A stretch of 64,000 bases of DNA from Parcubacteria group bacterium Greene0714_7 (GCA_007378985.1 VMHB01000001.1:192252-256251), one strand, 5' to 3'; counted from the stretch's first letter, positions 2,896 through 45,173 are shown. Numbers and translations: made by a program. Notes: generated from the letters alone by a model not told the origin.

Positions 2896-4362
2896 ATGCT
2901 GGGATTTTTGAAAAAATCGACTGAACGATTACCTCTCTTTCTCTACAACACACTCTCTAAAACAAAAGAGGAATTTAAGACAATAAGTGGCAAAAAGGTA
3001 AAGATGTATACCTGTGGTCCCACGGTGTATGACTATGCACATATTGGAAATCTACGTGCCTACGTATTTGCTGATACGCTTCGGCGAACACTTGAATACG
3101 CTGGTCTCTCAGTGAAGCAGGTGATTAACATCACTGATGTTGGGCATCTGGCGCAGGATTCCGATGATGGAGAAGATAAGATGACCAATGCATTGAAGCG
3201 TGAAGGCAAAGAACTCACCATTCCGAACATGAAGCTTTTAGGAGAAAGCTACACTTCGCTTTTTATAGAAGACTTGAAGGCGCTCAATGTTGAAATGCCA
3301 TTCGTATTTCCACGAGCTACCGCACATATTCACGAGCAAATTGCATTTATTTCTTCGCTCTTTCAGAAAGGATATGCGTATAAAACCTCAGACGGCATAT
3401 ATTTTGATACAGCCAAGTTTCCGTCCTATGGTGCACTCGGTGTGTCTGACGGAGGACAGGCTTTGCCTTCTTTAGGTCAAGCACGCATAGTGGCAAACCC
3501 CGAAAAGCACGACCAGCGAGACTTCGCACTTTGGAAGTTTGATAGCTCTCTTGGTTTCGAAGCGCCGTGGGGAAAAGGGTTCCCCGGGTGGCACATTGAA
3601 TGTACTGCCATGGCAACCAAGTATCTTGGAAAAAGTTTTGATATACATACTGGTGGCGTTGATCACATTGCCATTCATCACAATAATGAAATTGCACAAG
3701 CAGAAGCAGTGTCGGGTAAAAGATTCGTGAACTATTGGATGCACGGGGAATTTATTACCATTGAAGGAAAACGCATTGGAAAGTCAGAAGGAAATGCGAT
3801 TCGCTTATATCAACTTCGTGAACGTAATGTAAGTCCAACTGCATATAGGTATTTATTGCTCACTGCTCATTACCGTTCGCTTTTGAATTTCACATGGGAA
3901 GCTGTACTTGGAGCGCAAACTGCACTTCAGAGGGCTCAACGCATGTTTGCGGATTTTCCAGCGGGTGGACATATTGCAACTCTCTATCGCACAAAGTTTG
4001 GGACGGCGATTAATGATGATTTGAATATACCAATCGCAATTGCGGTGATGTGGGAGCTTTTGAAAGATGATTCGGTTACACCTGCCGATAAGCGGGCGAC
4101 AATTCTCGATTTTGATCGTGTATTTGGGTTAGGCTTTGGTACAGGATCGCTTTCTGAGAGCTCTAAAGTTTCGGTCACTGCGTTATCTGATGTACCGACG
4201 GAGGTAGCGTCTTTGGTTAAAGAGCGTGAAGAGGCCAGGGGATCTAAGGATTGGGCACGCGCTGATGCACTAAGGCTTTCCATTGAAGAGCAAGGGTTTA
4301 CAGTTGAAGATGCCCCAGAAGGGCCGATCGTGCATAAAACGTCCGAAGGGTTTAAGGGATAG
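2896..4362 (+). CDS. cysS: Cysteinyl-tRNA synthetase
   Basis: Class I aaRS HIGN motif (AHIGNLRAY), a CysRS-like catalytic core and an anticodon-binding C-terminus. Confidence 0.9.
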   Translation: MLGFLKKSTERLPLFLYNTLSKTKEEFKTISGKKVKMYTCGPTVYDYAHIGNLRAYVFADTLRRTLEYAGLSVKQVINITDVGHLAQDSDDGEDKMTNALKREGKELTIPNMKLLGESYTSLFIEDLKALNVEMPFVFPRATAHIHEQIAFISSLFQKGYAYKTSDGIYFDTAKFPSYGALGVSDGGQALPSLGQARIVANPEKHDQRDFALWKFDSSLGFEAPWGKGFPGWHIECTAMATKYLGKSFDIHTGGVDHIAIHHNNEIAQAEAVSGKRFVNYWMHGEFITIEGKRIGKSEGNAIRLYQLRERNVSPTAYRYLLLTAHYRSLLNFTWEAVLGAQTALQRAQRMFADFPAGGHIATLYRTKFGTAINDDLNIPIAIAVMWELLKDDSVTPADKRATILDFDRVFGLGFGTGSLSESSKVSVTALSDVPTEVASLVKEREEARGSKDWARADALRLSIEEQGFTVEDAPEGPIVHKTSEGFKG

Positions 4363-4465
4363 TAGGTAGCCGCACAGGTGTTGAATTTTGTAGTTTTTTC
4401 CCTAAAACCTAGTCCCTAGCACCTACCTCTGTGGTATCCTGTTTTTATTAACTAAGCATTTTTTT

Positions 4466-4993
4466 ATGAACAGTAAAAACATCAACGTTATCATCATATT
4501 GGCAATTGCAGTTGTTGCTATTTTCATCGGACTTGGATTCTTTGGTTTCGGTGGACTTGGTACTACAGGTGCTCCAAAAACTGAACAAAATGGCGCGCAA
4601 GCAATTCTTGCTGAAATTCAACAGACAGGAACAGTTGCAGATCTTCGAGTTCAAGAAATTACTGACGGGGCCGGCGAAGTAGTTGCCCCCGGAGATACGC
4701 TCACCGTTCAATACATTGGCGTTTTACCTGATGGTACAGTTTTTGATTCAACTGATGCACATGGTGGTACGCCCTTCGTATTTACTATTGGAGCTGGAAA
4801 GGTTATTCAGGGGTGGGAAAGAGGTCTTCTTGGTATGAGAGAAGGGGGCCGTCGCTTACTTGCAGTGCCACCGGCGTTAGGATACGGCGCACAGGCAAAT
4901 GGTGTGATTCCTGCAAATTCCACGTTGATATTTGATGTGCAACTTTTGAAACGGGTTCCCGCAGGCACTCCTGTCGCACCAGCGATTCCATAA
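4466..4993 (+). CDS. FKBP-type peptidyl-prolyl cis-trans isomerase with an N-terminal transmembrane anchor
   Basis: FKBP domain (VQYIGVLPDGTVFDST...GWERGLLGMREGGRRLLAVPPALGYG) after an N-terminal hydrophobic helix. Confidence 0.85.
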   Translation: MNSKNINVIIILAIAVVAIFIGLGFFGFGGLGTTGAPKTEQNGAQAILAEIQQTGTVADLRVQEITDGAGEVVAPGDTLTVQYIGVLPDGTVFDSTDAHGGTPFVFTIGAGKVIQGWERGLLGMREGGRRLLAVPPALGYGAQANGVIPANSTLIFDVQLLKRVPAGTPVAPAIP

Positions 4994-8392: not shown

Positions 8393-8500
8393 ATGATGAG
8401 CGGATTTAAACTTAAATCAGAATATAGTCCTGCAGGGGACCCCAGTACCAGACGCTCTTGCGTCGGTACGGGGCAGGTCATCCTTCATATAAAAACATGA
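8393..8500 (+). other. 35-codon upstream ORF that repeats the UvrB N-terminus and contains hairpin module A. Its TGA overlaps the uvrB ATG (ATGA).
   Basis: The uORF begins MMSGFKLKSEYSPAGD. The real UvrB begins MSGFNLKSDYKPAGD. Most codons differ only at synonymous positions. Confidence 0.45.
8438..8477 (+). repeat. GC-rich hairpin module A of the GACCCCAGT...ACGGGGCAGG family
   Basis: GACCCCAGTACCAGACGCTCTTGCGTCGGTACGGGGCAGG. The outer stem is CCCC(A)GTACC/GGTACGGGG and the inner stem is GACGC-TCTT-GCGTC. Confidence 0.6.
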
Positions 8501-10581
8501 GTGGTTTTAATCTCAAATCTGACTACAAACCAGCTGGCGATCAACCGCGAGCCATCGAGGCGTTGGTTAAGGGTGTGAAAGACGGGGAGTCACATCAGAC
8601 ACTTCTTGGGGTTACCGGCTCGGGTAAAACATTCACTGTTGCAAATGTTATACAGCAGATTCAAAAGCCAACCTTAGTCATTGCACACAATAAAACACTC
8701 GCAGCGCAACTTACACAAGAGTATCGAGAATTTTTCCCTGAAAATGCGGTGCACTATTTTGTTTCTTACTACGACTACTATCAGCCAGAGGCATACATGC
8801 CGATGACTGATACCTACATTGAAAAAGAGGCTCAAATTAACGCTGAAATTGATCGTTTGCGCCATGCTTCTACTCAGGCACTTTTAACTCGGAGTGATGT
8901 CATTATTGTGGCATCCGTTTCCGCTATCTACGGTCTTGGTTCTCCTGAGCAATATAAAAGAGTCCATAGGAATATTAGGGTGGGTGAAAAATTCGAGCGT
9001 GCAGAATTTGTACGTGCTCTCATTGGGCTCCAGTTTGAGCGTACAAACGCCGACTTAACTCCGGGGACATTTAGAGCGGTAGGTGCGAACGTTGAGCTTA
9101 TGCCAGTCAATGAAGTAGCGGTGTACCGTATTCATCCAGAGCAAGGAAGAATCGCACACATTAGTAAGCTCAATGCTGTTTCCCGGGCTCTTGTTGACGA
9201 GCCAAAAGAATTTTTTCTTTTTCCTGCAAAACATTATGTTACCGATGAAGCTGATAGAGGAAGGGCGGTAGCAGATATACAAAAAGAACTTGATGTTCGT
9301 TTGGTCCAGCTTGAAGCTGAAGGAAAAATGCTGGAGGCAGAACGCCTGCGGAGGCGTACTCGCTACGACCTCGCCCTCATTCGTGAAATTGGATACTGCA
9401 ACGGCATTGAAAATTATTCTCGCCACTTTGATGGACGCAAAGCTGGAGAGCCTCCGTATACGCTTCTTTCGTATTTTCCACACAAAGCAGATGGAACGCC
9501 AGATTTCCTTACGGTCATTGATGAGTCACACGTCACTATTCCTCAGCTCCGTGCCATGTATGCAGGAGACCAGTCACGAAAAAAGATGCTGGTTGATTAC
9601 GGGTTTCGTTTGCCATCTGCTGCGGACAATCGCCCTTTAACATTTGCGGAATTTGAGAAAAGAGTTGGAGAAAAAGTGTATACCAGTGCAACGCCAGGAG
9701 TGTATGAGTTTGAGCATTCGGGTACACCAATCGAGCAAGTCATTCGACCTACGGGACTCATTGACCCTGAAATAATAATTCGCCCCGTAACGGGCACCAG
9801 TTCATCGAGTAGTCAGGTAGTTGATTTCATACAGGAGACCGTCTCGGTAGTAAAAGGAGGAGGGCGAGTGCTTGTCACTACACTGACGAAGAAGATGGCG
9901 GAAGACTTGTCGGAATTCTTAAAAGAAAAAAATATAAAAGCTGAGTATATTCATAGTGATATTAAAACGATTGACCGCATTACTATTCTCACTGAATTTC
10001 GCAAAGGGACCTTTGATTGCTTGGTTGGTGTGAACCTACTTCGTGAAGGGCTCGACCTACCTGAAGTTGAGCTTGTGGGAATACTTGATGCCGATAAGGA
10101 GGGATTTCTTCGCTCCGATACATCACTCATTCAGACTATTGGTCGCGCAGCTCGAAATGTTAATGGTCGGGTTATTCTCTATGCCGATGGAATGACTGGC
10201 TCTATGGAGCGTGCCATTGGAGAGACTAATCGTAGGCGTGCGGTACAGCTTGCCTACAATACAAAGCACGGCATCACACCAAAAACCATTCATAAGAACA
10301 TTAAAGACATTACGGAAACACTGCAATCAGAGAGAGCTGCGGCTATTACTATGCTTTTGGCAGTTGATGAGGATCGTACGCATGATCCTAAAGCCTTGAA
10401 GGCTCTTATTAGCGAGAAACGCCAGCAAATGGAAGATGCGGTTGAGGTTCTTGATTTTGAGACTGCCGCACTGCTGCGAGATGAGGTCTATAAACTTGAA
10501 GAAAAACTACCCGTGCCGAAAAAGCCTAAGCGTAAACCCAAATGGCCCAAGAAAGGTATGGTAATTGATTTAGAAGATTAG
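8497..10581 (+). CDS. uvrB: Excinuclease ABC subunit B
   Basis: UvrB helicase motifs (GVTGSGKTF, DESH) and a C-terminal UvrB/UvrC interaction helix. The start is taken at the MSGFNLKSDY Met, not the TTG of the ORF track. Confidence 0.9.
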   Translation: MSGFNLKSDYKPAGDQPRAIEALVKGVKDGESHQTLLGVTGSGKTFTVANVIQQIQKPTLVIAHNKTLAAQLTQEYREFFPENAVHYFVSYYDYYQPEAYMPMTDTYIEKEAQINAEIDRLRHASTQALLTRSDVIIVASVSAIYGLGSPEQYKRVHRNIRVGEKFERAEFVRALIGLQFERTNADLTPGTFRAVGANVELMPVNEVAVYRIHPEQGRIAHISKLNAVSRALVDEPKEFFLFPAKHYVTDEADRGRAVADIQKELDVRLVQLEAEGKMLEAERLRRRTRYDLALIREIGYCNGIENYSRHFDGRKAGEPPYTLLSYFPHKADGTPDFLTVIDESHVTIPQLRAMYAGDQSRKKMLVDYGFRLPSAADNRPLTFAEFEKRVGEKVYTSATPGVYEFEHSGTPIEQVIRPTGLIDPEIIIRPVTGTSSSSSQVVDFIQETVSVVKGGGRVLVTTLTKKMAEDLSEFLKEKNIKAEYIHSDIKTIDRITILTEFRKGTFDCLVGVNLLREGLDLPEVELVGILDADKEGFLRSDTSLIQTIGRAARNVNGRVILYADGMTGSMERAIGETNRRRAVQLAYNTKHGITPKTIHKNIKDITETLQSERAAAITMLLAVDEDRTHDPKALKALISEKRQQMEDAVEVLDFETAALLRDEVYKLEEKLPVPKKPKRKPKWPKKGMVIDLED

Positions 10582-16016: not shown

Positions 16017-16090
16017 GTGGACCGTGCCGGTTTCGAACCGGCTGCCTCCGCATTGCAAATGCGGCGCTCTACCAATTGAGCTAACGGCCC
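16017..16090 (-). tRNA. tRNA-Ala (anticodon TGC)
   Basis: The reverse complement folds as a cloverleaf with a G3:U70 pair, anticodon loop TTTGCAA and T-loop GGTTCGAAACC. Confidence 0.85.
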
Positions 16091-16345
16091 TCACTGAGAA
16101 AGAGAGTATCATACAACTCTTTGTATGTACTCTTTTCGAAGAGGGCGGCCGAAAACTTTGTTTACAGGCCCTCGACGAGAAAGAGGATAGCATACGAGAT
16201 TCTCATATGTACCTCTCTCAATGAAGAAGAGAATACCATGAGTGGGGAATCTATGCACCTCTCAGATAGGTCGAATATATAGGTTGAGGGTCATATTTCG
16301 ACATAAGGGCCTCGGTTGTTATACTAGCCGTATACGTATATTTAA

Positions 16346-23798: not shown

Positions 23799-23869
23799 CG
23801 GGGCGGAGTATGCCGGTAGTACATACGATTCGGGTTCGTATAGACCGAGTTCGATTCTCGGCGCCCCGA
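23799..23869 (+). tRNA. tRNA-Pro (anticodon CGG)
   Basis: Acceptor CGGGGCG/CGCCCCG, anticodon stem TACGA/TCGTA, loop TTCGGGT with G37, and T-arm CCGAG-TTCGATT-CTCGG. Confidence 0.7.
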
Positions 23870-24004
23870 CTGAACAAAGTGAAGGAGGAAGAACAGACCG
23901 ACTGCTCGGTCTGTGTCCGGAATCGAAAGTCGGAGTCATGCCGTTAGGCAGACGAGACCGGGTAGAAACCACTTAGCGAGTCCTCGAGCGGAGTTCGTTG
24001 ACGC

Positions 24005-24023
24005 CGATTCTCGGCGCCCCGAC
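24005..24023 (+). repeat. Direct repeat of the tRNA-Pro 3' end (19 nt, followed by an encoded CCA), a possible att-like remnant
   Basis: CGATTCTCGGCGCCCCGAC is identical to 23852-23870. The downstream copy continues with CA (ACCA) while the intact tRNA continues with CTG. Confidence 0.6.
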
Positions 24024-24721: not shown

Positions 24722-24797
24722 AGATGCCGTTTATTATATCATTTTGATTTTTTAACTCTTCAGTAATGTAATTTTTAAGTATTATTAACCAATTGCC

Positions 24798-24837
24798 TGT
24801 ATAGTATAATTTAACGACCGTTAAATTATACTATACA
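24798..24837. promoter_or_regulatory. 40-bp near-palindrome P2, same family as P1, in the divergent spacer between the 103-aa gene and the NUDIX gene
   Basis: TGTATAGTATAATTTAACG-AC-CGTTAAATTATACTATACA. Confidence 0.5.
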
Positions 24838-26061: not shown

Positions 26062-26580
26062 ATGGACGAAAAACAATTGAACGGGGAGATACGCACTGAA
26101 AAGACTCCACGCACGGTGTATTTTTTTGAGTACCTGACGCGTTGGACGGGTTCCATCCCATCATTGATTGTTCACACAATTCTTTTCGGTGGTGCTTTTG
26201 CTCTTGGGTTCTTTCATGTAGCTCCGTGGGATTCTGTGCTTTTGGTATTGACGACATTAGTTTCTTTAGAAGCAATCTATCTTTCTTTGCTCATACAAAT
26301 GACTGTCAATAGACACTCAGAAAGCTTGAAGGAGGTTGGAGAAGACGTTGAGGGGATTCAGGAAGACATTGAAGAAATTACCGAAGACGTTGAGGGAATT
26401 CAGGAAGACATTGAAGAAATTACCGAAGACGTTGAGGGAATTCAGGAGGATGTTGAAGAAATGACCGAAGAAGATGCTGAAGACGCAGAATTAGAAAAGC
26501 GTCATCTCGTGAGCCTAGAGCAGTTAACAAAAGATGTACAACGGGTTTTACAGGACTTGGAGAAATTCAAGAAACAGTGA
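26062..26580 (+). CDS. DUF1003-like membrane protein with an acidic C-terminal tandem repeat
   Basis: Two transmembrane helices (FGGAFALGFFHVAPW...) are followed by three copies of a 14-aa repeat VEGIQEDIEEITED. Confidence 0.55.
   Translation: MDEKQLNGEIRTEKTPRTVYFFEYLTRWTGSIPSLIVHTILFGGAFALGFFHVAPWDSVLLVLTTLVSLEAIYLSLLIQMTVNRHSESLKEVGEDVEGIQEDIEEITEDVEGIQEDIEEITEDVEGIQEDVEEMTEEDAEDAELEKRHLVSLEQLTKDVQRVLQDLEKFKKQ
26347..26472 (+). repeat. Three tandem copies of a 42-bp in-frame repeat inside the DUF1003-like gene
   Basis: GTTGAGGGAATTCAGGAAGACATTGAAGAAATTACCGAAGAC x3, with a few substitutions in copies 1 and 3. Confidence 0.8.
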
Positions 26581-30308: not shown

Positions 30309-30413
30309 ATGTCTCTCAAAGATATCAAACTCAAAATAAAATCTGTTGACCCCAGTCGTAGAGCTGGAACAGCTCACAACGGGGCAGGCCGTACTCACAT
30401 ACTATGTCGTTAA
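30309..30413 (+). other. 34-codon upstream ORF that repeats the AtpG N-terminus and contains hairpin module C. Its TAA overlaps codons 3-4 of atpG.
   Basis: The uORF begins MSLKDIKLKIKSVD, identical to AtpG residues 1-14, yet 8 of 14 codons differ at synonymous positions. Confidence 0.45.
30348..30388 (+). repeat. GC-rich hairpin module C of the GACCCCAGT...ACGGGGCAGG family
   Basis: GACCCCAGTCGTAGAGCTGGAACAGCTCACAACGGGGCAGG. The inner stem is GAGCTG-GAA-CAGCTC. Confidence 0.6.
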
Positions 30414-31321
30414 AGGATATTAAATTGAAAATAAAGTCCGTGGACAGAACACGGAAAGTTACGAAGGCAATGGAATCTGTTTCTGCGGTGAAGATGCGCA
30501 AAAGTCAGATACGCGCAATTACCTCGAGGCCCTACGCTTCTTCCGCGCTCTCCATTCTGGAGCGCATGAGTGTTTCTCTCGCGTCTCTTAAACATCCGTT
30601 AACTGTTGTGCGACCTGTCAAAAAAGCAGCAATAGTTGTGGTTACCAGCGACAAGGGACTCTGCGGCATATTAAATGCAGCTGTTGTGAAATCTGCCTAC
30701 ACTCTTGCAGAATCATTGGAACTCCCTCGTGAAGCAATTTCTATCTACGCTTTTGGACGCAAAGGGGCTGAGTTTTTTGATCGCCGTGGATATCAAATTT
30801 TAGGAAAGTTTGAAAACGTTTCTGACGATGTTTCTGTTGCTGACCTAGCTCTTGTCTCAAATGATATCGCCCGTGCATTTCTAAATAAAGAATTTGACCG
30901 TGTTGATGTTGTATATACCAACTTTAAATCTACGTTTGAGCAAAGTGCTATTGCCCATAAAGTACTTCCACTCTCCATTGAAACAGTATCTGAAATAGTG
31001 AGCGGTATTGTGCCAGTAAAAGGAAAGTTTGCTGTGGTAGAGCGAGTGAAAGGTCCTGCATCATACACGGCAGAGCCATCTACTGAAGTTGTCGTAGACG
31101 CCCTCATTCCACGCCTTGTCAGTGTACTTTTCTTCCACGCACTTTTGGAGTCAAAAGCGTCAGAGCATTCAGCTCGTATGGTTGCCATGAAGAATGCGTC
31201 AGATAAATCTCGAGATCTTTCTAAGCTACTGACAAGAAAATACAACAAAGCTCGTCAGGCGCTTATTACCAGAGAAGTTTCCGAGATTGTTGGAGGTATC
31301 GAGGCCATGGCAACGAGTTAG
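30404..31321 (+). CDS. atpG: F-type ATP synthase subunit gamma
   Basis: Gamma subunit N- and C-terminal coiled-coil helices (MSLKDIKLKIKSV...ITREVSEIVGG). Confidence 0.9.
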   Translation: MSLKDIKLKIKSVDRTRKVTKAMESVSAVKMRKSQIRAITSRPYASSALSILERMSVSLASLKHPLTVVRPVKKAAIVVVTSDKGLCGILNAAVVKSAYTLAESLELPREAISIYAFGRKGAEFFDRRGYQILGKFENVSDDVSVADLALVSNDIARAFLNKEFDRVDVVYTNFKSTFEQSAIAHKVLPLSIETVSEIVSGIVPVKGKFAVVERVKGPASYTAEPSTEVVVDALIPRLVSVLFFHALLESKASEHSARMVAMKNASDKSRDLSKLLTRKYNKARQALITREVSEIVGGIEAMATS

Positions 31322-33981: not shown

Positions 33982-34078
33982 AATTATTTTTTTGAAACAC
34001 TAACCTTCGTTATTAAGAAGGATTCCAGAATTGTTTGTAGTGCGAGGGGAGTCCTCATGCTACATAAGTGTAAGTTTT

Positions 34079-37000
34079 TTAGAGAGGGGAAGAAGGGTTC
34101 CAGAATTGTTTCCCCGGGTTTCGGTAGACGAGGATTGGTGTGAGTACGAGTGTCAGAATCATTGCAAATGAGAGACCAAACATAATAGCGAAGGCAAGAG
34201 GTCCCCATAGTGCAGATGCGCCAGCGAGAGGAATCATACCAATGACGGTAGTGATGGTAGTGAGAACAATTGGTCGAAGCCTGCTTGCTGAACCGTCAAC
34301 AACTACCTCCTCCAGTGTCTTTCCTTCGGGATTCTTCATGCGGATTATGATTGAGTCCACAAGAATTATGGCGTGGTTGATTATGACACCAGCAAGTGCA
34401 ATGACACCTAAGAGAGATGAGAACGAGAGCGGTTGTCCCGTAAGTGCAAGGCCACCTAATACTCCAATGAGAGAAAGAATGACGAGCATGAGGAGATAGA
34501 ACGAATAGCGGAATGAATTGAATTCGAGTACTAGAACTGCAAGCATAAGCACCAAACCAGCGAGGAAGGCAATTCCCATTTCGCTGAATGACTTATTTAC
34601 ATCTTCCGTTTCGCCTCCGATTTTCATTACGACACCAGTAGGCAAAGTTTCTTTTTCAATAGCTTTTTTGAATGCGGTAGATACCTCAACAGCTGTTGCT
34701 CCTCCTGCAGTGTAGCTAGAGACAGTAGCAATGTTTTTTTGGTCTTGGCGCCTAATAACTGCGTTTGATTTTTCAATAGAAGGGGAGAGAATTGAGCCTA
34801 ACAGTACTGTGCCTCGAGGCGTTTTTACAGAGAGGTTTAAGAGCGTATTGATATCTGCTTTTGTAGTATCTTCCGGTTCTTGCCAAGAAGGGTTGAGGTT
34901 TGTGGAGACAAGAACGTCGATGTCCTCGGTGTCATTTTTTATAGTGGTTGCAACAACACCTGAGACTGCAGTTCGGAGAATGCTTGCTACCTGTAGAGGA
35001 GAGAGCCCCACTTGTGATGCCTTGGCGCGGTCAATAGTGAGGGCAAACTGTGTTCCATCGTCCTTAATAGATGTAGCTACTTCAGCAGTACCTTTAATGG
35101 AGCGCATTATTTTTTCGCCTGTAGCTACTGAGCGCTCTAAGTCATCAAGATTGTCTCCAGAGAAGGTTATAAGAACTGGGGCGCCTGAAGGTGGTCCGCC
35201 AGCTGGCTCGAATGCATTTACAGAAAATTCATGGAAAACAGAAACTTTGTTTCTGAGCTCTTCAGTAATTTGTGTTGAAGTTTGTTTTCGATCTTCTTTC
35301 GGTACAAGCTTGATGGTGATGTTTGCGTATTTGGCACCGCTGGATTGATTTTGACTTAATCCTGATGAGGCACCAACAGTTGTTACAAATGAGCTGATAC
35401 GCGAATCGTTATAAAGAAGCTCTTCTACACCTCGGGTGGCAAGATCAGTCACTTCAAGTGGTGTGCCTTGCTTTGCTTCTACTTCAAGATATACATAATC
35501 GGCATCCTCTGATGGGAAAAAGAGCACTTTCACAATGCCTGACACTGGTAAGAGAATTGCTACGACGAGAGCGAGACCCAATCCAAGCATGAATCTATTT
35601 TGGAATTTTCTATTTTTCAAAACTCCCGTAAGAAAGCTTCGGTACCATACTTGCGCTTTGTTGTTCCACTCTTCTTGTATGATTTGAAGTTTGCCAGTGC
35701 TTCGCTTGGTGAGATTTATTGCAATTAATGGCACTAAACCGAGTGCTACAAAAATCGAAGCAATAAGAACGGTAATGATTGTAAAGGGGATTGATTGAAT
35801 GTATTGACCTACAATACCTGAAATAAAGAAGAGTGGCGCAAACATAACGACAGTCGTCATAGTGCCTGCGGTTAGGGGCCTGGCATATTCGCGAATCGCT
35901 TCTTTTGCTGCACGAATTGGATCCCCAAATTTCTGATAGCGCGTGTGAATTGCTTCCGTCACCACGATGCCAGAATCAACAAGAATGCCGATTGCAAGAA
36001 TGAGTGCAAAGAGGGAGACGAAATTTATGGTGTTACCTGAAGCGTTCAGTCCTATGAATGCAATAACGAAAGAAAGAGGAATTGAAAGTCCTGCAACGAG
36101 AGATTCTCGCCAGCCAATTGTTAACACAAGACAGATCATGACGAGAGCGATTGTTTCTAAGCCAACTTTAGTAAGTTCGCTCAAACTTTTCTGAACTTCT
36201 TCTCCAAGGTCAATCGAGATATCGGTAGTAATACCCAAAAGCATTGTTCCCGAGAGCGAGTTTAGTTTTTCTTTTGCTGCTGATGCTGTTTTGAAAATAT
36301 TTCCTCCAGCTTTTTTATATACTGAAAGGGTAATTGCAGGCTCTGCTGGAGCGCCTTTAGTAGAAACGCGAGATACACTTTTTGCTTTCTCAAGACCGTT
36401 AACGATGTCCGCTACATCGCGAAGATAAATTGGGTTGCCATCTAAATTCCCGATACTTGTTTGCGCGAGTTCTTCTGGATCATTCAAATCGCCCTTAAAG
36501 GCAACAGAATACTCAATGGCATCGACAGTTATAGTGCCAACAGGTAAAGAACTATTGGACGCACTTAGGGCAGATACTACGTCCGTAAGTGATAGTCCGT
36601 ATGATTGTAAAGCTTCTTTGCGAACTATTATGTTCGCTTCTCGTTCGCGGGTACCGCTGATTTCCACTCTGGACACACCAGATACTTGTTCAAGTTCATC
36701 CTGCACATCTTTGGCAAGACGAGTAAATTCTGTTGGTGGAAGTCCGCCAGAAAGAGACACTATAAAAATTGGTTGATCGTTCGCTGTGATGCGGAGTACT
36801 ACAGGTTCGTCTGCATCTTTAGGAAGTTTTGGTTTTGCACGGTCAACCGCATCTTTAACATCCTGAATTGATTTATCAATATTTGCCGATGCTTCAAATT
36901 CAGCACTCACTACAGAGACTCCCTCGCGAGAAGAGGAAGTGAGTTTGTGAAGGTTCTCAACAGTGCCAACCTCTTTCTCTATTTCCTTTGTTATGAGTTT

Positions 37001-42653: not shown

Positions 42654-42755
42654 ATGGGAAGTTACGACCGCCCCAGTACCACCGGGCTCCGCATGGCTAC
42701 GGGGCAGGAAGTGGTTCGATATATAATCGTGTTTTTGACATTTTCAGTACCCTAA
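42654..42755 (+). other. 33-codon upstream ORF with a LeuRS-like start (MGSYD versus MQSYD) that contains hairpin module B and ends 6 nt before the leuS ATG
   Basis: ATG GGA AGT TAC GAC then CGCCCCAGT... The TAA lies at 42753. Confidence 0.4.
42666..42708 (+). repeat. GC-rich hairpin module B of the GACCCCAGT...ACGGGGCAGG family
   Basis: GACCGCCCCAGTACCACCGGGCTCCGCATGGCTACGGGGCAGG. Confidence 0.55.
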
Positions 42756-42761
42756 ATCTGC

Positions 42762-45173
42762 ATGCAATCATACGACCACAAAAAAATAGAGAAAAAATGG
42801 CGAAAGCTTTGGGAAGAGTCAGGTATTTACAAGACTAGTGAAAATTCATCAAAGCCAAAGCACTATGTTCTGGACATGTTTCCGTACCCATCGGCGTTAG
42901 GTCTTCACACTGGTCATGTTGAAGGGTATGCGGCGACCGATATTTACAGTCGTTTTAAACGAATGAAGGGGTTCAGTGTGCTCCATCCTATGGGATGGGA
43001 TGCGTTCGGTCTCCCTGCAGAAAACTATGCAATAAAAACAAATACGCCACCTCGAGAAACTACAAATAAGGCAATTGATAACTTCCGCAATCAAATCCAA
43101 CGCTTAGGCCTTTCGTATGACTGGTCACGAGAAATAGGCACTCACAATCCTGACTATTATAAGTGGACACAGTGGTTGTTTTTGTTCTTGTTTGAAAATG
43201 GTCTTGCGGAAAAACGCATGGGTAAGGTGAATTGGTGTCCCACCGACCAAACAGTGCTCGCCAATGAACAAACAGTGAGTGAGAGTGGAGAAAAGGGTGT
43301 GTGTGTTCGTTGCGGTACAAAAATAATTCAACGCGAACTTTCACAGTGGTTTTTCAAAATTACTGATTTTGCTGATGTATTAATTGATGATTTGAATGGT
43401 GTTGATTGGCCAGAGTCTACAAAAATAAATCAACGAAATTGGATTGGTAGAAAAGAAGGAGTCATTGTTACTCATAAAGTGAAAGGGCTGGATGTATCGC
43501 TCGACACGTTTAGTGCCTATCCTGCATGGCTTTTTGCGGATACCTATATGGTACTTGCTCCTGAGCACCCAATAGTAAAAACTCTTGTGGAAGGTACTGA
43601 AGTACAAAAGAGTGTTGAGGATTTTGTGAAGTGTATGCAGGAGGTCACAACGATTGATCGCACAAACGCAACAACGGAGAAAGAGGGTATTTTTACAGGA
43701 CGCTTCGCTATTGACTCTCTCTCCGGTAAAGAATTTCCTATTTGGATTGCTAACTTTGCTTTGATGGATTTTGGAACAGGTATTATTCGTTGCTCTTCAC
43801 ACGATATCCGCGACCTTACATTTGCTAAAAAATACGGAATCCCTTTGAGTGAGGTAGTCGAGAGAGAAAGTCCTGATATGCCCGTTGATGCCCATGCTAA
43901 TAAGGGTGTTTTGAAAGACTCGGGTCCGTTCACTGGTCGCACTATTAATAATGAGTTAATTCAAGAAATAATTGCGTGGATAGAAAGTAATGGATATGGG
44001 CATGCACAGACTACATACCGTCTTCGTGATTGGCTTATTTCTCGTCAACGATATTGGGGGGCGCCTATTCCAGTAGTGTATGACCCAGAAGGGAAAGCGC
44101 ATGGAGTTCCCAAAGAGCACTTGCCGTGGCTCCTTCCTGAAGATGTAGAGTATTTACCGAAGGGAACTTCACCGCTCGGAACCTCAAAGGAACTTTTGGA
44201 ACGAACAGAGAAAATATTTGGGAAAGGGTGGAAGCCAGAGATCGACACTATGGACACTTTCGTGTGTTCTTCGTGGTATTTTCTTCGATTTGCCGATCCA
44301 CATAATGAGATTGAGTTTGCGTCGAAAGAAGTAGTAAAAAAATGGCTTCCCGTTGACCTCTACATGGGAGGTGCTGAACATACAGTTTTGCATCTTATGT
44401 ACGCCCGCTTTATTACCAAGGCCCTGCAGAAGTTTGGATACATAGAGTTTGGTGAGCCATTCTCCAAGCTCCGTCACCAAGGGATGATTCTTGCTGAAGA
44501 TGGAACCAAGATGTCTAAGTCGAAAGGTAATGTCATAAACCCTGACGAAATTAGTGAACTCTACGGTGCGGACACGCTACGAATTTATGAAATGTTCATG
44601 GGTCCTCTTGAAGCTATGAAGCCATGGAGCACCAAAAATATTATTGGCTCACGGAGATTTTTGGAGCGTGTCTGGAGGGTACAAGAAAAGGTGAGTCAAG
44701 GTGCAACTTTGAGTGCAAGCGCTGATGCCACTCTACAGCAAACAATTAAAAAAGTAGCTGAAGATATCGAGCTCCTTAGTTTAAACACGGCAGTGAGTCA
44801 GATGATGATTTGTGTTAATGCTTTTGAAAAAGAAGAAAAAATACCTGCTGAAAGCTATGAGAGCATGCTGTTGGTACTTGCCCCGTTTGCACCTCATATG
44901 ACAGAAGAATTATGGGAAACTTTGGGTCATACTTCTTCAATTCATCAAGAAAATTGGCCAGTGTTTGATGAAAGTAAGCTCGAAAAAAATGAAGTAGTAA
45001 TGGCTGTTCAGGTTGGTGGGAAAGTAAAGGGCACCATTGTCATTCCTCGCGGAGCTACAGAAGAAGAAGTAATTGAGTTAGTACGAAAAGACGTCAAACT
45101 TGGTGGGGTAGTTCCTCAAAACCCATCCCGCATGATATTCGTTCCCAATAGGGTCGTTAACTTCATACCCTAG
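42762..45173 (+). CDS. leuS: Leucyl-tRNA synthetase
   Basis: HIGH-region equivalent (HTGHVEGY), KMSKS, and the CP1 editing and anticodon-binding domains. Confidence 0.95.
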   Translation: MQSYDHKKIEKKWRKLWEESGIYKTSENSSKPKHYVLDMFPYPSALGLHTGHVEGYAATDIYSRFKRMKGFSVLHPMGWDAFGLPAENYAIKTNTPPRETTNKAIDNFRNQIQRLGLSYDWSREIGTHNPDYYKWTQWLFLFLFENGLAEKRMGKVNWCPTDQTVLANEQTVSESGEKGVCVRCGTKIIQRELSQWFFKITDFADVLIDDLNGVDWPESTKINQRNWIGRKEGVIVTHKVKGLDVSLDTFSAYPAWLFADTYMVLAPEHPIVKTLVEGTEVQKSVEDFVKCMQEVTTIDRTNATTEKEGIFTGRFAIDSLSGKEFPIWIANFALMDFGTGIIRCSSHDIRDLTFAKKYGIPLSEVVERESPDMPVDAHANKGVLKDSGPFTGRTINNELIQEIIAWIESNGYGHAQTTYRLRDWLISRQRYWGAPIPVVYDPEGKAHGVPKEHLPWLLPEDVEYLPKGTSPLGTSKELLERTEKIFGKGWKPEIDTMDTFVCSSWYFLRFADPHNEIEFASKEVVKKWLPVDLYMGGAEHTVLHLMYARFITKALQKFGYIEFGEPFSKLRHQGMILAEDGTKMSKSKGNVINPDEISELYGADTLRIYEMFMGPLEAMKPWSTKNIIGSRRFLERVWRVQEKVSQGATLSASADATLQQTIKKVAEDIELLSLNTAVSQMMICVNAFEKEEKIPAESYESMLLVLAPFAPHMTEELWETLGHTSSIHQENWPVFDESKLEKNEVVMAVQVGGKVKGTIVIPRGATEEEVIELVRKDVKLGGVVPQNPSRMIFVPNRVVNFIP

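Follow-up and report, generated by a model that had tools for sequence, protein, structure and literature searches.

Three genes of Parcubacteria group bacterium Greene0714_7, uvrB, atpG and leuS, are each preceded by a small GC-rich hairpin, here termed E, that lies between a relic of the native gene start and a second, complete start of the working gene. All three loci are on the plus strand of the 64-kb stretch of DNA that was analysed, which is referred to as the window. E is a member of a dispersed, structure-conserving hairpin family that is widespread and was previously uncatalogued, and it is best read as a non-coding, REP/MITE-like mobile DNA hairpin. The arrangement is probably explained by insertions of this hairpin into gene ends that survive only with a replacement end from another lineage.

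The motif CCCCAGT-N21/22-ACGGGGCAGG has exactly three matches in the 64-kb window, all on the plus strand, at positions 8440-8477 (site A, uvrB), 30350-30388 (site B, atpG) and 42671-42708 (site C, leuS). None were expected, and none of 100 shuffled sequences gave a match. A covariance model built on 53 family members and run on the window with filters off recovered the same three sites only (47.2, 46.7 and 42.1 bits for A, B and C, with E-values of at most 3e-8), the next-best match having an E-value of 1.2. The element is formed by CCCC, a bulged A, a GU...AC stem-loop and GGGG, followed by an unpaired CAGG(C) tail, giving a total of 34-45 nt. The RNA minimum free energies at A, B and C are -24.3, -18.0 and -18.0 kcal/mol, with z-scores of -4.0, -2.7 and -1.1, respectively. 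It had been proposed in the initial annotation that pairing is kept despite changes in the hairpin core, and this is borne out by the 53 copies: both sides have changed in 7 of the 13 stem pairs (117 cells), which was reached by 0 of 500 shuffles, and sliding the pairing partner along E lowers pairing from 89% to 34-47%. G-U pairs are rare in the stems (5 of 687 cells), as expected if both DNA strands matter.

A search for the motif beyond the window, as the initial annotation had suggested, places the family in many genomes, with at least 120 loci from one scan of species-representative genomes and 20 from viral contigs. The 53 distinct hairpin copies come from Patescibacteria, Desulfobacterota, Cloacimonadota, Planctomycetota and viral contigs, and within the Patescibacteria the copies conserve two bulged A residues. 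That the 17-nt core is invariant across the wider family is partly by construction, since the core was demanded by the collection scan; a member with a variant core exists (L223). Most members are without a flanking repeat and, where repeats exist, they are diverged and 6-72 nt in length. Other copies reside in intergenic DNA or in frame inside genes, with in-frame translation of E in dnaG (L011, L108) and in a holB-like gene (L101). Matches to a 43-nt motif in high-GC genomes belong to a conserved coding motif (ArsC-like, judged by eye only) and were excluded from the family. Rfam gave no family match for E, either in the window at the gathering threshold or at eight loci at E-values of up to 1. 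The literature, searched by topic and by core sequence, held nothing relevant to E, the nearest item being a survey of REP elements (PMC3733652). One copy compared by BLAST with annotated plasmids and phages returned chance partial matches only. Integron attC sites are 57-141 nt in length and carry 5'-RYYYAAC...GTTRRRY-3' boxes. This class was rejected for E, which is 34-45 nt, carries such boxes (GTTAAAT...ATTTAAC), where present, in reversed order and has no Rfam match at an E-value of 1 or below.

The three sites with an upstream ORF repeating the N-terminus, a hairpin and the real gene were all found where they had been described, with small corrections, and the ORFs of 33-35 aa end at or near the real start as claimed. 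At site A, the relic ORF (8393..8500, plus strand, 35 aa) consists of native uvrB codons 1-16 and continues through E to a TGA that overlaps the uvrB ATG as ATGA. This copy of E (8440..8477, plus strand) is laid out as CCCC, a bulged A, 5 bp, a second bulged A, 5 bp, a loop and GGGG with the unpaired CAGG tail. The empty uvrB allele of L230 reads ATG GTG AGC GGA TTT AAA CTT AAA TCA GAA TAT AGT TCT GCA GGA GAT CAG... and runs unbroken into uvrB. Aligned with it, E is a simple insertion after the GA of codon 16, and the native sequence resumes 3′ of E at 8478..8484 (plus strand; TCATCCT against native TCAGCCT, 6 of 7 matching in the expected register). The hairpin had been described as beginning at or just after an Asp GAC codon. 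The GAC is present, but it is formed by GA and the first C of E, so that the Asp codon at the hairpin base follows from the position of E after a GA dinucleotide.

The replacement block of site A (8485..8553, plus strand) is a divergent tract of 12 nt of upstream sequence and the first 19 codons of the working uvrB gene (8497..10581, plus strand, 694 aa), which is a 100% match to P0121, ‘excinuclease ABC subunit B, Parcubacteria group bacterium Greene0714_7’. The two N-termini read MSGFKLKSEYSPAGD and MSGFNLKSDYKPAGD, and the earlier count of nine synonymous and three non-synonymous codon differences between them is confirmed. Compared with L230, the tract differs at 19 of 57 nt, including six non-synonymous codons, against 29 of 900 nt over the next 300 codons (p = 8e-13). 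Its N-terminus resembles that of L231/P0123, i.e., the type of another lineage. The upstream copy differs from the empty allele at 4 of 45 nt and directly adjoins conserved upstream DNA. Empty uvrB sites are seen in L230 and L231; a metagenome scan for UvrB relatives gave only loci of at most 67% identity, all without E, and did not serve the empty-site comparison.

At site B, the relic ORF (30309..30413, plus strand, 34 aa) contains native atpG codons 1-14, E, and native codons 15-17, now out of use, and ends with a TAA located 9 nt into atpG. The 39-nt element (30350..30388, plus strand) has an identical allele in L227, L228 and L229. An assembly artefact is ruled out, as the atpG allele with E is identical in four independent assemblies. 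Native atpG resumes immediately after E as CCGTACTC (30389..30396, plus strand), identical at 8 of 8 positions to the sequence that follows GA in the empty allele, where GA runs directly into CCGTACTC (L226: ...TCTGTTGACCGTACTCGTAAAGTT). The divergent tract that forms the replacement block (30397..30454, plus strand) comprises 7 nt of upstream sequence (ACATACT) and codons 1-17 of the working gene (30404..31321, plus strand, 305 aa; PF00231; 100% match to P0001). Both copies encode the N-terminus MSLKDIKLKIKSVD, with 10 nucleotide differences that are all synonymous. Against L226, the tract differs at 14 of 51 nt, again all synonymous, compared with 6 of 339 downstream (p = 1.6e-9), whereas the upstream copy is identical at 42 of 42 nt and adjoins conserved upstream DNA. 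Empty atpG sites are seen in L226, L145, L144, L141 and L143 (98-84% amino acid identity).

At site C, the relic ORF (42654..42755, plus strand, 33 aa) is in the leuS frame and is made up of native leuS codons 1-5/6, E (42671..42708, plus strand, 38 nt) and a spacer, with a TAA 6 nt before the leuS ATG. The replacement block (42709..42851, plus strand) holds 53 nt of upstream sequence, whose final ~24 nt share homology with the region upstream of native leuS (TTTTCAGT...), and codons 1-30 of the working gene (42762..45173, plus strand, 803 aa), a 100% match to P0241, the leucyl-tRNA synthetase of Greene0714_7. The N-terminal copies read MGSYD(R) and MQSYD(H), and the empty alleles of L232 and L233 are continuous (ATG GG(T/C) AGT TAC GAC CA(T/C) AAA...). 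The tract differs from L232 at 28 of 90 nt, against 47 of 810 downstream (p = 1.4e-11), with nine synonymous and nine non-synonymous codons, including a Ser AGT->TCA switch. The upstream copy, which adjoins conserved upstream DNA, differs from the empty allele at 1 of 15 nt. The native sequence does not clearly resume after E at this site, which makes the reading of a simple insertion weaker at leuS. Elsewhere in the family, native bases resume 3′ of E at ~17 of 20 positions in L022 and 6-10 of 13 in L034. The conserved flanks had been said to fall in different reading frames; the 5′ flank is in the same frame (xxC CCC AGT) at the three sites, and it is the 3′ flank that differs, because copy B is 1 nt longer.

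For the empty-site comparison, the loci of relatives were found through protein look-ups. The alignment of orthologous loci, also put forward in the initial annotation, finds the module absent at all three genes in relatives of 94-98% protein identity, and the covariance model run over 104 kb of relatives' DNA found no E except the same atpG allele. E is polymorphic between close relatives. The working starts are sharply bounded tracts with 24-33% difference within DNA that is otherwise ~97% identical, the DNA flanking the three tracts differing by ~2-6%. These alignments show the upstream copy to be the native gene start and the downstream copy to be a sharply bounded foreign-type tract, the latter being an allele of the same gene from another lineage and not a recoded duplicate. 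The upstream “mini-gene” is a relic of the native start and not a new translational device. The apparent synonymous recoding arises because two orthologous alleles are being compared. It had been attributed to selection on the upstream peptide, a view that is not sustained as the upstream copy is the native start (42 of 42 nt at atpG) and the differences sit in the downstream tract.

The identity between the window and its relatives is a mosaic in general, implying that recombination between diverged lineages is common here. Searches for donors of the three replacement tracts did not find a source lineage, the best LeuS N-terminus among 120 homologues matching at 21 of 30 positions. An exact search of viral contigs with the atpG and uvrB tracts gave no match, so a phage or viral carrier is not supported. 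Scans for promoter and terminator consensus sequences around the three sites gave nothing informative. A diversity-generating retroelement was rejected, as the differences between the copies are not adenine-specific.

The order relic, E (5′ to 3′), functional copy was observed in 11 of 11 cases. These are sites A, B and C, rplX (L034, L116), a smpB-like gene (L035), a typA-like gene (L120), an epimerase gene (L022), the uvrB gene with a variant E (L223), a tRNA-Thr gene on the opposite strand in which E lies within the anticodon loop of the relic (L071), and the 3′ end of a methylase-like gene on the opposite strand (L036). The polarity relative to E is fixed, whatever the gene strand or gene end. 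Its constancy at a tRNA gene and at an opposite-strand 3′ end points to a process at the DNA level, and it appears that the process acts on DNA.

According to the preferred explanation, three copies of E would have inserted into uvrB, atpG and leuS, each within the first 6-16 codons and with no duplication of the target. The interrupted native start would stay behind as a relic that is still readable as a short ORF, and a second, complete gene start 15-53 nt 3′ of E would keep the gene intact. Besides the first 17-30 codons, this second start would include upstream sequence, from a few nt to ~50 nt in length, and would rejoin the resident gene in register. An essential gene end with an E insertion would be viable only together with its replacement end. 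The divergence between the two copies would itself help the arrangement to persist, since identical repeats would recombine and delete E. As a weak guess, the coupling could involve a break or a stalled 3′ end a few nucleotides 3′ of E, with repair by copying a homologous gene end out of register from taken-up foreign DNA, and end joining. The leuS insertion should be lethal before rescue, which suggests that insertion and rescue were simultaneous or took place in a polyploid or heterozygous cell. The allele with E may instead be old, recombination with empty alleles having evened out its flanks but not the second copy, which stayed divergent. Neither a trans-acting transposase nor a recombinase was identified in the 64-kb window, and no transposase is present in the gene lists of the window and the relatives' short flanks. 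The mobile REP/MITE-like element at gene 5′ ends that had been postulated for these sites is upheld as regards the dispersed family and the empty sites, but the recoded target duplication attached to it is not.

Homology-facilitated illegitimate recombination, known from natural transformation, combines one homologous, in-register junction with one illegitimate, out-of-register junction. In its known form, the process mostly substitutes or removes DNA of the recipient, without a link to any particular repeat element. The present loci resemble it in that foreign DNA of a related lineage has been taken in beside a heterology, and the host group of the window genome relies on DNA uptake. They differ in that the illegitimate joint lies within 7-17 nt of the 3′ side of E and the outcome is a partial tandem duplication. 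A tentative proposal, to which we give clearly less than even weight, is that E is the cis-acting site of a DNA system in which the hairpin directs a nick or break to a position a few bases 3′ of E, and foreign DNA serves as the template from which the same gene end is copied to repair it. Every insertion would then bring in a mismatched replacement end acquired horizontally. Put another way, E and a homologous cargo would move between genomes as a homology-guided unit.

It is unlikely that the inserts are miniature or degraded site-specific integrative elements, integrated by a recombinase and carrying their own copy of the gene end, of which only E and a few dozen bases remain or move. Prophage e14 and phage 21 in icd, and islands in tRNA 3′ ends, supply a substitute gene end on integration. 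The present loci resemble these in several respects: diverged direct repeats of the gene end flank the insert, the incoming end is of foreign type, rich in synonymous differences and keeps the gene whole, the native end survives as a relic across the insert, the same pattern occurs at a tRNA gene (L071), and the polarity is fixed (11 of 11). The window also has a 134-nt insert with a perfect 19-nt repeat of a tRNA-Pro 3′ end. Set against this, native sequence lies on both sides of E (8 of 8 and 6 of 7 nt), and the novel joint is found 7-17 nt beyond it. No identical crossover core is common to the two junctions, and the right-hand, in-register boundary is variable, at 3 to ~24 codons beyond the point of insertion, in the manner of a homologous crossover. 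The 54-91 nt inserts have no integrase in or next to them, the adjoining genes being an AAA/MgsA-like gene, uvrA, atpA, atpD, a DUF5671 gene and a sigma-70 gene, and most E copies elsewhere are without flanking repeats. From the integration remnant suggested earlier, the replacement 5′ end holds as an outcome, while classical site-specific integration does not, given the native sequence on both sides of E and the lack of a core common to the junctions. Campbell-type integration of a small circle was rejected, as the native and foreign segments are not distributed in the way it would predict. The 134-nt insert itself, flanked by the perfect 19-nt repeat, looks like a true att duplication; Rfam gives no family for it.

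A selected expression device is more doubtful still. The relic ORF and hairpin would then act as a leader, through termination-reinitiation or melting of the hairpin by translating ribosomes, and be kept by selection. The relic ORFs run through E without interruption and terminate at the real ATG or close to it, with an ATGA overlap at uvrB and L116 and distances of -17 to +20 nt elsewhere, and the frame is the same in 7 of the 8 N-terminal cases (L022 uses another). At rplX, the insertion is common to two genomes that are ~80% identical in rplN and has compensatory changes in the E stems. The relic ATG there keeps its native 4-nt spacing after the rplN stop in the rplN-rplX operon, and the relic peptide is conserved. 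This long retention with a still-open relic ORF may leave room for a selected expression role. Conservation at orthologous loci, as for a leader peptide or regulatory uORF, is however seen at rplX only (L034 vs. L116), and all three genes of the window lack the device in relatives of 94-98% protein identity. The conservation of the upstream peptide is explained by its identity as the native start, and other copies of E lie between genes or, in frame, within them. Translational control had been offered as a possible origin, but the same architecture is found where translation is irrelevant, at a tRNA gene and at the 3′ end of an opposite-strand gene. Translational coupling of the relic ORF to the gene is a possible consequence and cannot be why the structure exists; present-day effects on expression, whether through such coupling or through a hairpin in the leader, would be a side effect.

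The model implicit in the earlier account, of an in-place tandem duplication that diverged slowly under purifying selection on both peptides, is very improbable. In its favour, most of the codon differences that separate the two copies are synonymous (10/0 at atpG, 9/3 at uvrB). Yet the atpG upstream copy differs from the empty allele at 0 of 42 nt and the downstream copy at 14 of 51, in DNA that is otherwise near-identical, so that all change would fall in the working gene and too fast for the flanks to change. The leuS tract also holds nine non-synonymous codons.

Programmed ribosomal bypass, with take-off at the hairpin-base codon and landing on its counterpart in the second copy, can be practically dismissed. 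In T4 gene 60 and the yeast mitochondrial ‘byp’ elements, the take-off codon is followed by a stop, the gap measures ~27-55 nt and the downstream part lacks a start of its own. A GC-rich hairpin of mobile origin within a coding region does begin here at a GAC/AAC codon, with a matching Asp/Asn codon downstream in several cases, but the gap of 101-108 nt is double that of known cases. The take-off codon is not followed by a stop, the relic ORF continuing for 17-27 codons beyond the first codon of the hairpin, and the downstream gene starts at an ATG of its own with its N-terminus complete. L022 is in another frame, the layout recurs at the tRNA and at the other-strand 3′ gene end, and in dnaG E is simply translated.

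Among described repeats, REP/REPIN elements are close in form. They are mobilised by RAYT Y1 transposases, whose gene is flanked by the repeats, and are present in many copies per genome, for the most part outside genes and 3′ of ORFs. They have an unpaired GTAG (or CGTC) tetranucleotide head, and REPs are sometimes intragenic, with genes of replication and repair (uvrA, uvrB and dnaE, for example) standing out (PMC3733652). E shares with them the form of an imperfect GC-rich palindrome of small size (20-45 nt), one end of which bears a conserved, unpaired tag; it forms sub-families with compensatory stem changes, lacks a target duplication for most copies, and is intragenic in uvrB, dnaG and the holB-like gene. 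It differs in its tag of invariant columns, CCCCAGT / ACGGGGCAGG(C), with GTAG only inside the stem of a subset, in the two conserved bulged A residues of the Patescibacteria copies, and in having the same core in several phyla. The three copies in 64 kb all lie within relic gene starts and not downstream of genes, and no RAYT was seen in the 64-kb window and the relatives' short flanks. PMC3733652 gives no account of coupling to a replacement gene end, and the word “duplication” has 0 occurrences in it. MITEs, with terminal inverted repeats, a fixed-length target-site duplication and a size of 70-300 bp, differ from E, which is 34-45 nt and mostly without flanking repeats. Rickettsia palindromic elements (RPEs) are ~100-150 bp (PMC3733652). 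E is likewise a selfish palindrome in a reduced genome that is translated in frame inside genes (dnaG, the holB-like gene, UvrB loops). It is unrelated to RPEs in sequence and size, so the resemblance is one of behaviour and not of membership. To our knowledge, RPEs have not been reported to leave a relic gene start and a foreign replacement start.

The family adds a new hairpin repeat, absent from Rfam and the searched literature, whose single 17-nt core recurs in several phyla of largely uncultured bacteria. In compact genomes, E can survive inside essential genes, either translated in frame or paired with a foreign replacement end. The replacement tracts provide direct evidence, resolved to single bases, for an exchange of 50-150 nt fragments among diverged lineages of Patescibacteria. 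They also illustrate that a synonymous excess between two neighbouring copies does not have to reflect selection on the pair, as alleles from different lineages suffice. Should the cis-site or homology-guided proposal be true, it would represent a new way for a tiny non-coding element to enter essential genes while the host survives, and a new sub-genic route of horizontal transfer in Patescibacteria and other anaerobic lineages. Relic ORFs and start codons within the hairpin are also a hazard to annotation, as they mislead gene callers. A mechanical ORF list places the uvrB start at a TTG inside E, and the public AtpG entries of the Greene0714_7 species are truncated to 293 aa.

A short DNA hairpin, here termed E, occurs at three gene starts in the window and represents a new family of REP-like mobile hairpins. 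The pattern CCCCAGT-N21/22-ACGGGGCAGG is found three times, always on the plus strand, against none expected: at uvrB (site A, 8440-8477), atpG (site B, 30350-30388) and leuS (site C, 42671-42708). The UvrB and LeuS proteins of the window are 100% matches to database entries of the Greene0714_7 MAG. In each copy, a CCCC/GGGG clamp encloses a 5-bp helix and, within that, an inner helix with its loop. One bulged A precedes the 5-bp helix and another follows it, and an unpaired CAGG tail comes after GGGG. The hairpin is enclosed by a short ORF of 35 aa (A), 34 aa (B) or 33 aa (C), whose start repeats the N-terminus of the next gene and whose stop lies at or adjoins the ATG of that gene. As motif, fold and short ORFs are all present as stated, the initial annotation described these sites accurately; its statement that the flanks lie in differing reading frames requires correction for the 5′ flank, which has the same frame (xxC/CCC/AGT) at all three. 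The element also disturbs start-codon annotation. A mechanical ORF list places the start of the uvrB frame on a TTG within E (8458), and the public AtpG entries of the species (P0009/P0010), at 293 aa, are N-terminally truncated.

Relatives with empty sites were retrieved for all three genes via protein homologues and their contigs. The atpG gene of contig L226 (98% aa and 93% nt identity) has no E and begins ...CCTAAAACCCCC ATG TCT CTC AAA GAT ATC AAA CTC AAA ATA AAA TCT GTT GAC CGT ACT CGT AAA GTT...; the gene is also free of E in L145, L144, L141 and L143. The upstream atpG copy of the window is identical to the L226 sequence (42/42). In L230 (97% aa identity in UvrB), the common upstream DNA leads directly into the gene start without interruption, and this start (ATG GTG AGC GGA TTT AAA CTT AAA TCA GAA TAT AGT TCT GCA GGA GAT CAG CCT AAG GCC...) is the upstream copy of the window. 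The leuS genes of L232 (94% aa identity) and L233 likewise have an uninterrupted native start. The upstream ORF is a relic of the native gene start, and E is mobile or polymorphic. An identical atpG allele with E is present in three assemblies of a 99% relative (L227, L228 and L229), and a covariance model run on 104 kb of relatives’ DNA detected no E besides this allele.

Between E and the resident gene lies a replacement block, a second and complete gene start, which is of foreign type and sharply bounded. Relative to the empty allele, 14 of 51 nt differ in the atpG tract and 6 of the next 339 (p = 1.6e-9). The corresponding values are 19 of 57 and 29 of 900 for uvrB (p = 8e-13), and 28 of 90 and 47 of 810 for leuS (p = 1.4e-11). 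The atpG tract carries only synonymous changes, extending three codons past the repeat (CGT ACT CGT to AGA ACA CGG). There are six non-synonymous codons in the uvrB tract, including a K to R change past the repeat, and nine in that of leuS, where one Ser is recoded from AGT to TCA. The N-terminus of the uvrB tract is of the type found in another sampled lineage (L231/P0123). Since the divergent tracts are so sharply bounded, the two copies are alleles of one gene start from different lineages, and this accounts for the “purified” look of the differences between them. That look had been read as selection on the upstream peptide; this inference fails. Compared with L226, L227, L230 and L232 across atpG, uvrB and leuS, the window has a strongly mosaic nucleotide identity, in which long difference-free runs alternate with tracts of 50-300 nt that are 15-30% different. 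Diverged lineages in this population therefore routinely exchange short tracts by homologous recombination.

As the junctions show, E has simply been inserted into the relic copy. The 8 nt that follow E at atpG (CCGTACTC) are the exact native continuation of GA/CCGTACTC; at uvrB, the 7 nt after E (TCATCCT) match the native TCAGCCT at six of seven positions. Native sequence also resumes 3′ of E in L022 (approximately 17/20) and in L034. The novel joint to the replacement block comes only after these resumed bases, 7-8 nt beyond E at two window sites, and the block includes 7, 12 or up to 53 nt ahead of the new ATG. Thus, the order is a native gene end enclosing E, the joint, and a complete foreign-type end in register with the resident gene. 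Flanking repeats are absent from most copies of the family elsewhere; E on its own thus generates no target duplication.

All three copies of E in the window are located in relics, and a local direct-repeat scan of the window found no gene-start relic lacking E. Insertion and replacement appear to be coupled, mechanistically or selectively, because chance alone cannot have placed three of three copies in about 150 nt of relic DNA. The arrangement probably persists better when the two copies have diverged, as recombination between identical repeats would regenerate the empty allele. The best guess for the coupling is a break healed with a homologous gene end from foreign DNA. A break or stalled end would form near the 3′ side of E, and the homologous gene end would be copied out of register from taken-up foreign DNA, together with end joining. 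An older E allele, the flanks of which have been homogenised by recombination, fits about as well as break healing. Classical integration of an element that brings its own gene end, as happens at icd or tRNA genes, would have a similar outcome but fails, as the junction anatomy does not fit and the inserts are not accompanied by an integrase gene.

The relic ORFs are open throughout E and end near the real ATG, and the relic in the rplN-rplX operon has retained the native coupling distance. Judged from these reading frames, a translational relay is plausible as a consequence of the arrangement. At native starts, -10-like hexamers (TATAGT, TATAAT) lie 3-7 nt upstream of the ATG, which may hint at leaderless mRNAs. 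The suggestion of a new decoding or control device is not borne out; the hairpins are REP-like mobile DNA with relic gene starts.

The relic lies on the 5′ side of E and the functional copy on the 3′ side in 11 of 11 cases. Besides the three window sites, this layout is seen at rplX in L034 and L116, where the insertions are orthologous and the E copies differ by compensatory changes, at an smpB-like gene (L035), a typA-like gene (L120), an epimerase gene in another reading frame (L022) and a uvrB with a variant E (L223). On the opposite strand, it occurs at the 3′ end of a methylase-like gene (L036) and at a tRNA-Thr (L071), where the 3′ half forms the relic and carries E in its anticodon loop; a complete tRNA follows 32 nt beyond E. 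Polarity is fixed relative to E. Since neither the strand of the gene nor the gene end involved alters it, its cause is at the DNA level and not in translation. Ribosomal bypass across the hairpin, proposed at low prior, is disposed of by this DNA-level polarity and by the genes’ own ATGs. A partly duplicated 3′ end of a minus-strand RND transporter gene is found at 34015-34111 of the window. It comprises a relic with the native stop as in L144 (34015-34036), the hairpin GTAGTGCGAGGGGAGTCCTCATGCTAC (34037-34063), 26 nt, and the working copy (34090-34111) with a C-terminus similar to that of the L227 allele. Relic, hairpin and functional copy follow one another as at the E sites, but this hairpin lacks the CCCC/GGGGCAGG clamp; the insert is absent from L227, L228 and L144.

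A family scan returned at least 120 loci in species-representative genomes and 20 further in viral contigs. With chance matches and a conserved high-GC coding motif taken out, 53 distinct copies fold with the CCCC/GGGG clamp. Their hosts are many Patescibacteria classes, Desulfobacterota, Cloacimonadota, Planctomycetota, an uncultured gammaproteobacterium and viral contigs. The stem interior varies among copies yet keeps its pairing, with both-sided change in 7 of 13 pairs; no shuffle reaches the observed covariation, and pairing is lost when the partner is slid. G-U pairing is very rare, at 5 of 687 cells. The invariance of the core is partly a product of the search design, and variant cores exist. 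The proposal of a mobile REP-like hairpin is upheld by this dispersed, covarying family and by the empty sites at all three genes. The family is large and uncatalogued: Rfam holds no family matching E, and literature searches by topic and by sequence found no description of it. The closest is a survey of tagged REP elements, which also notes REPs inside uvrA, uvrB and dnaE (PMC3733652). The finding is real and not ordinary, and the family has an unusual, recurrent means of survival within essential gene ends. The 43-nt pattern matches in high-GC genomes (L006, L014, L046, L047, L049, L063, L093, L097, L102, L109, L111, L117 and others) are false positives from a conserved protein-coding gene; their opposite strand encodes ...CPV.PGQP..AHWG, ArsC- or low-molecular-weight-phosphatase-like by eye.

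Copies of E also lie within genes. In DnaG of two lineages and a holB-like protein, E is translated in frame as a loop insertion of 12-14 aa. Several UvrB homologues have loop insertions such as ...ERSGPLGQV..., resembling a variant E read in frame. In P0196, P0198, P0205, P0209 and P0224, the loop preceding GQV.DFI is lengthened in frame by 20-50 aa that include ..(E/G)RSGPLGQV.., a motif that an CTGGGGCAGGT-type variant would encode; P0198 apparently has two. In such in-frame, translated copies, the family resembles the Rickettsia palindromic elements and intragenic REPs. Outside Patescibacteria (L067 Desulfobacterales, L030 Cloacimonadota, L106), other arrangements are seen. There are two direct copies about 775 nt apart, each before the same small ORF (MGGRFGKYGDAKRKAQLRK...), and, at another locus, two inverted copies with common flanks of about 15 nt bracketing about 320 nt. 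Repeat-rich spacers hold tandem or nested copies. At 5600-5950 of L025, where no tRNA was detected, E is flanked on both sides by a 72-nt repeat, the two copies of which are about 90% identical and contain a long hairpin of their own (CCATTTATGTAAGTCC...ACATAAATGG).

The window contains further repeats. An AT-rich hairpin followed by ACAGGCAA (24792-24835, minus strand) is a weak covariance-model match (10.1 bits, E-value 1.2) without the CCCC/GGGG clamp, in a region conserved in L227 and L144. Behind tRNA-Pro (23799-23870) is a 134-nt insert (23871-24004), after which 19 nt of the tRNA 3′ end recur without a mismatch (CGATTCTCGGCGCCCCGAC, 24005-24023). Inserts related to it lie behind tRNA-Val in L227 (about 3600-3760), where the window has none, and, in L144 (about 4330-4500), behind a different tRNA. 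They have a common 3′ part, CCACTTAGCGAGTCCTCGAGC..AGT..GACGC, their hairpins covary between copies, and no Rfam match was obtained. This would seem to be a second structured mini-element, one that targets tRNAs. At 16086-16195, a diverged 29-nt direct repeat (GGCCCTCACTGAGAAAGAGAGTATCATAC / GGCCCTCGACGAGAAAGAGGATAGCATAC) begins at the 5′ edge of the minus-strand tRNA-Ala, and a perfect 42-nt tandem duplication (CAGGAAGACATTGAAGAAATTACCGAAGACGTTGAGGGAATT twice) lies inside an ORF at 26359-26442.
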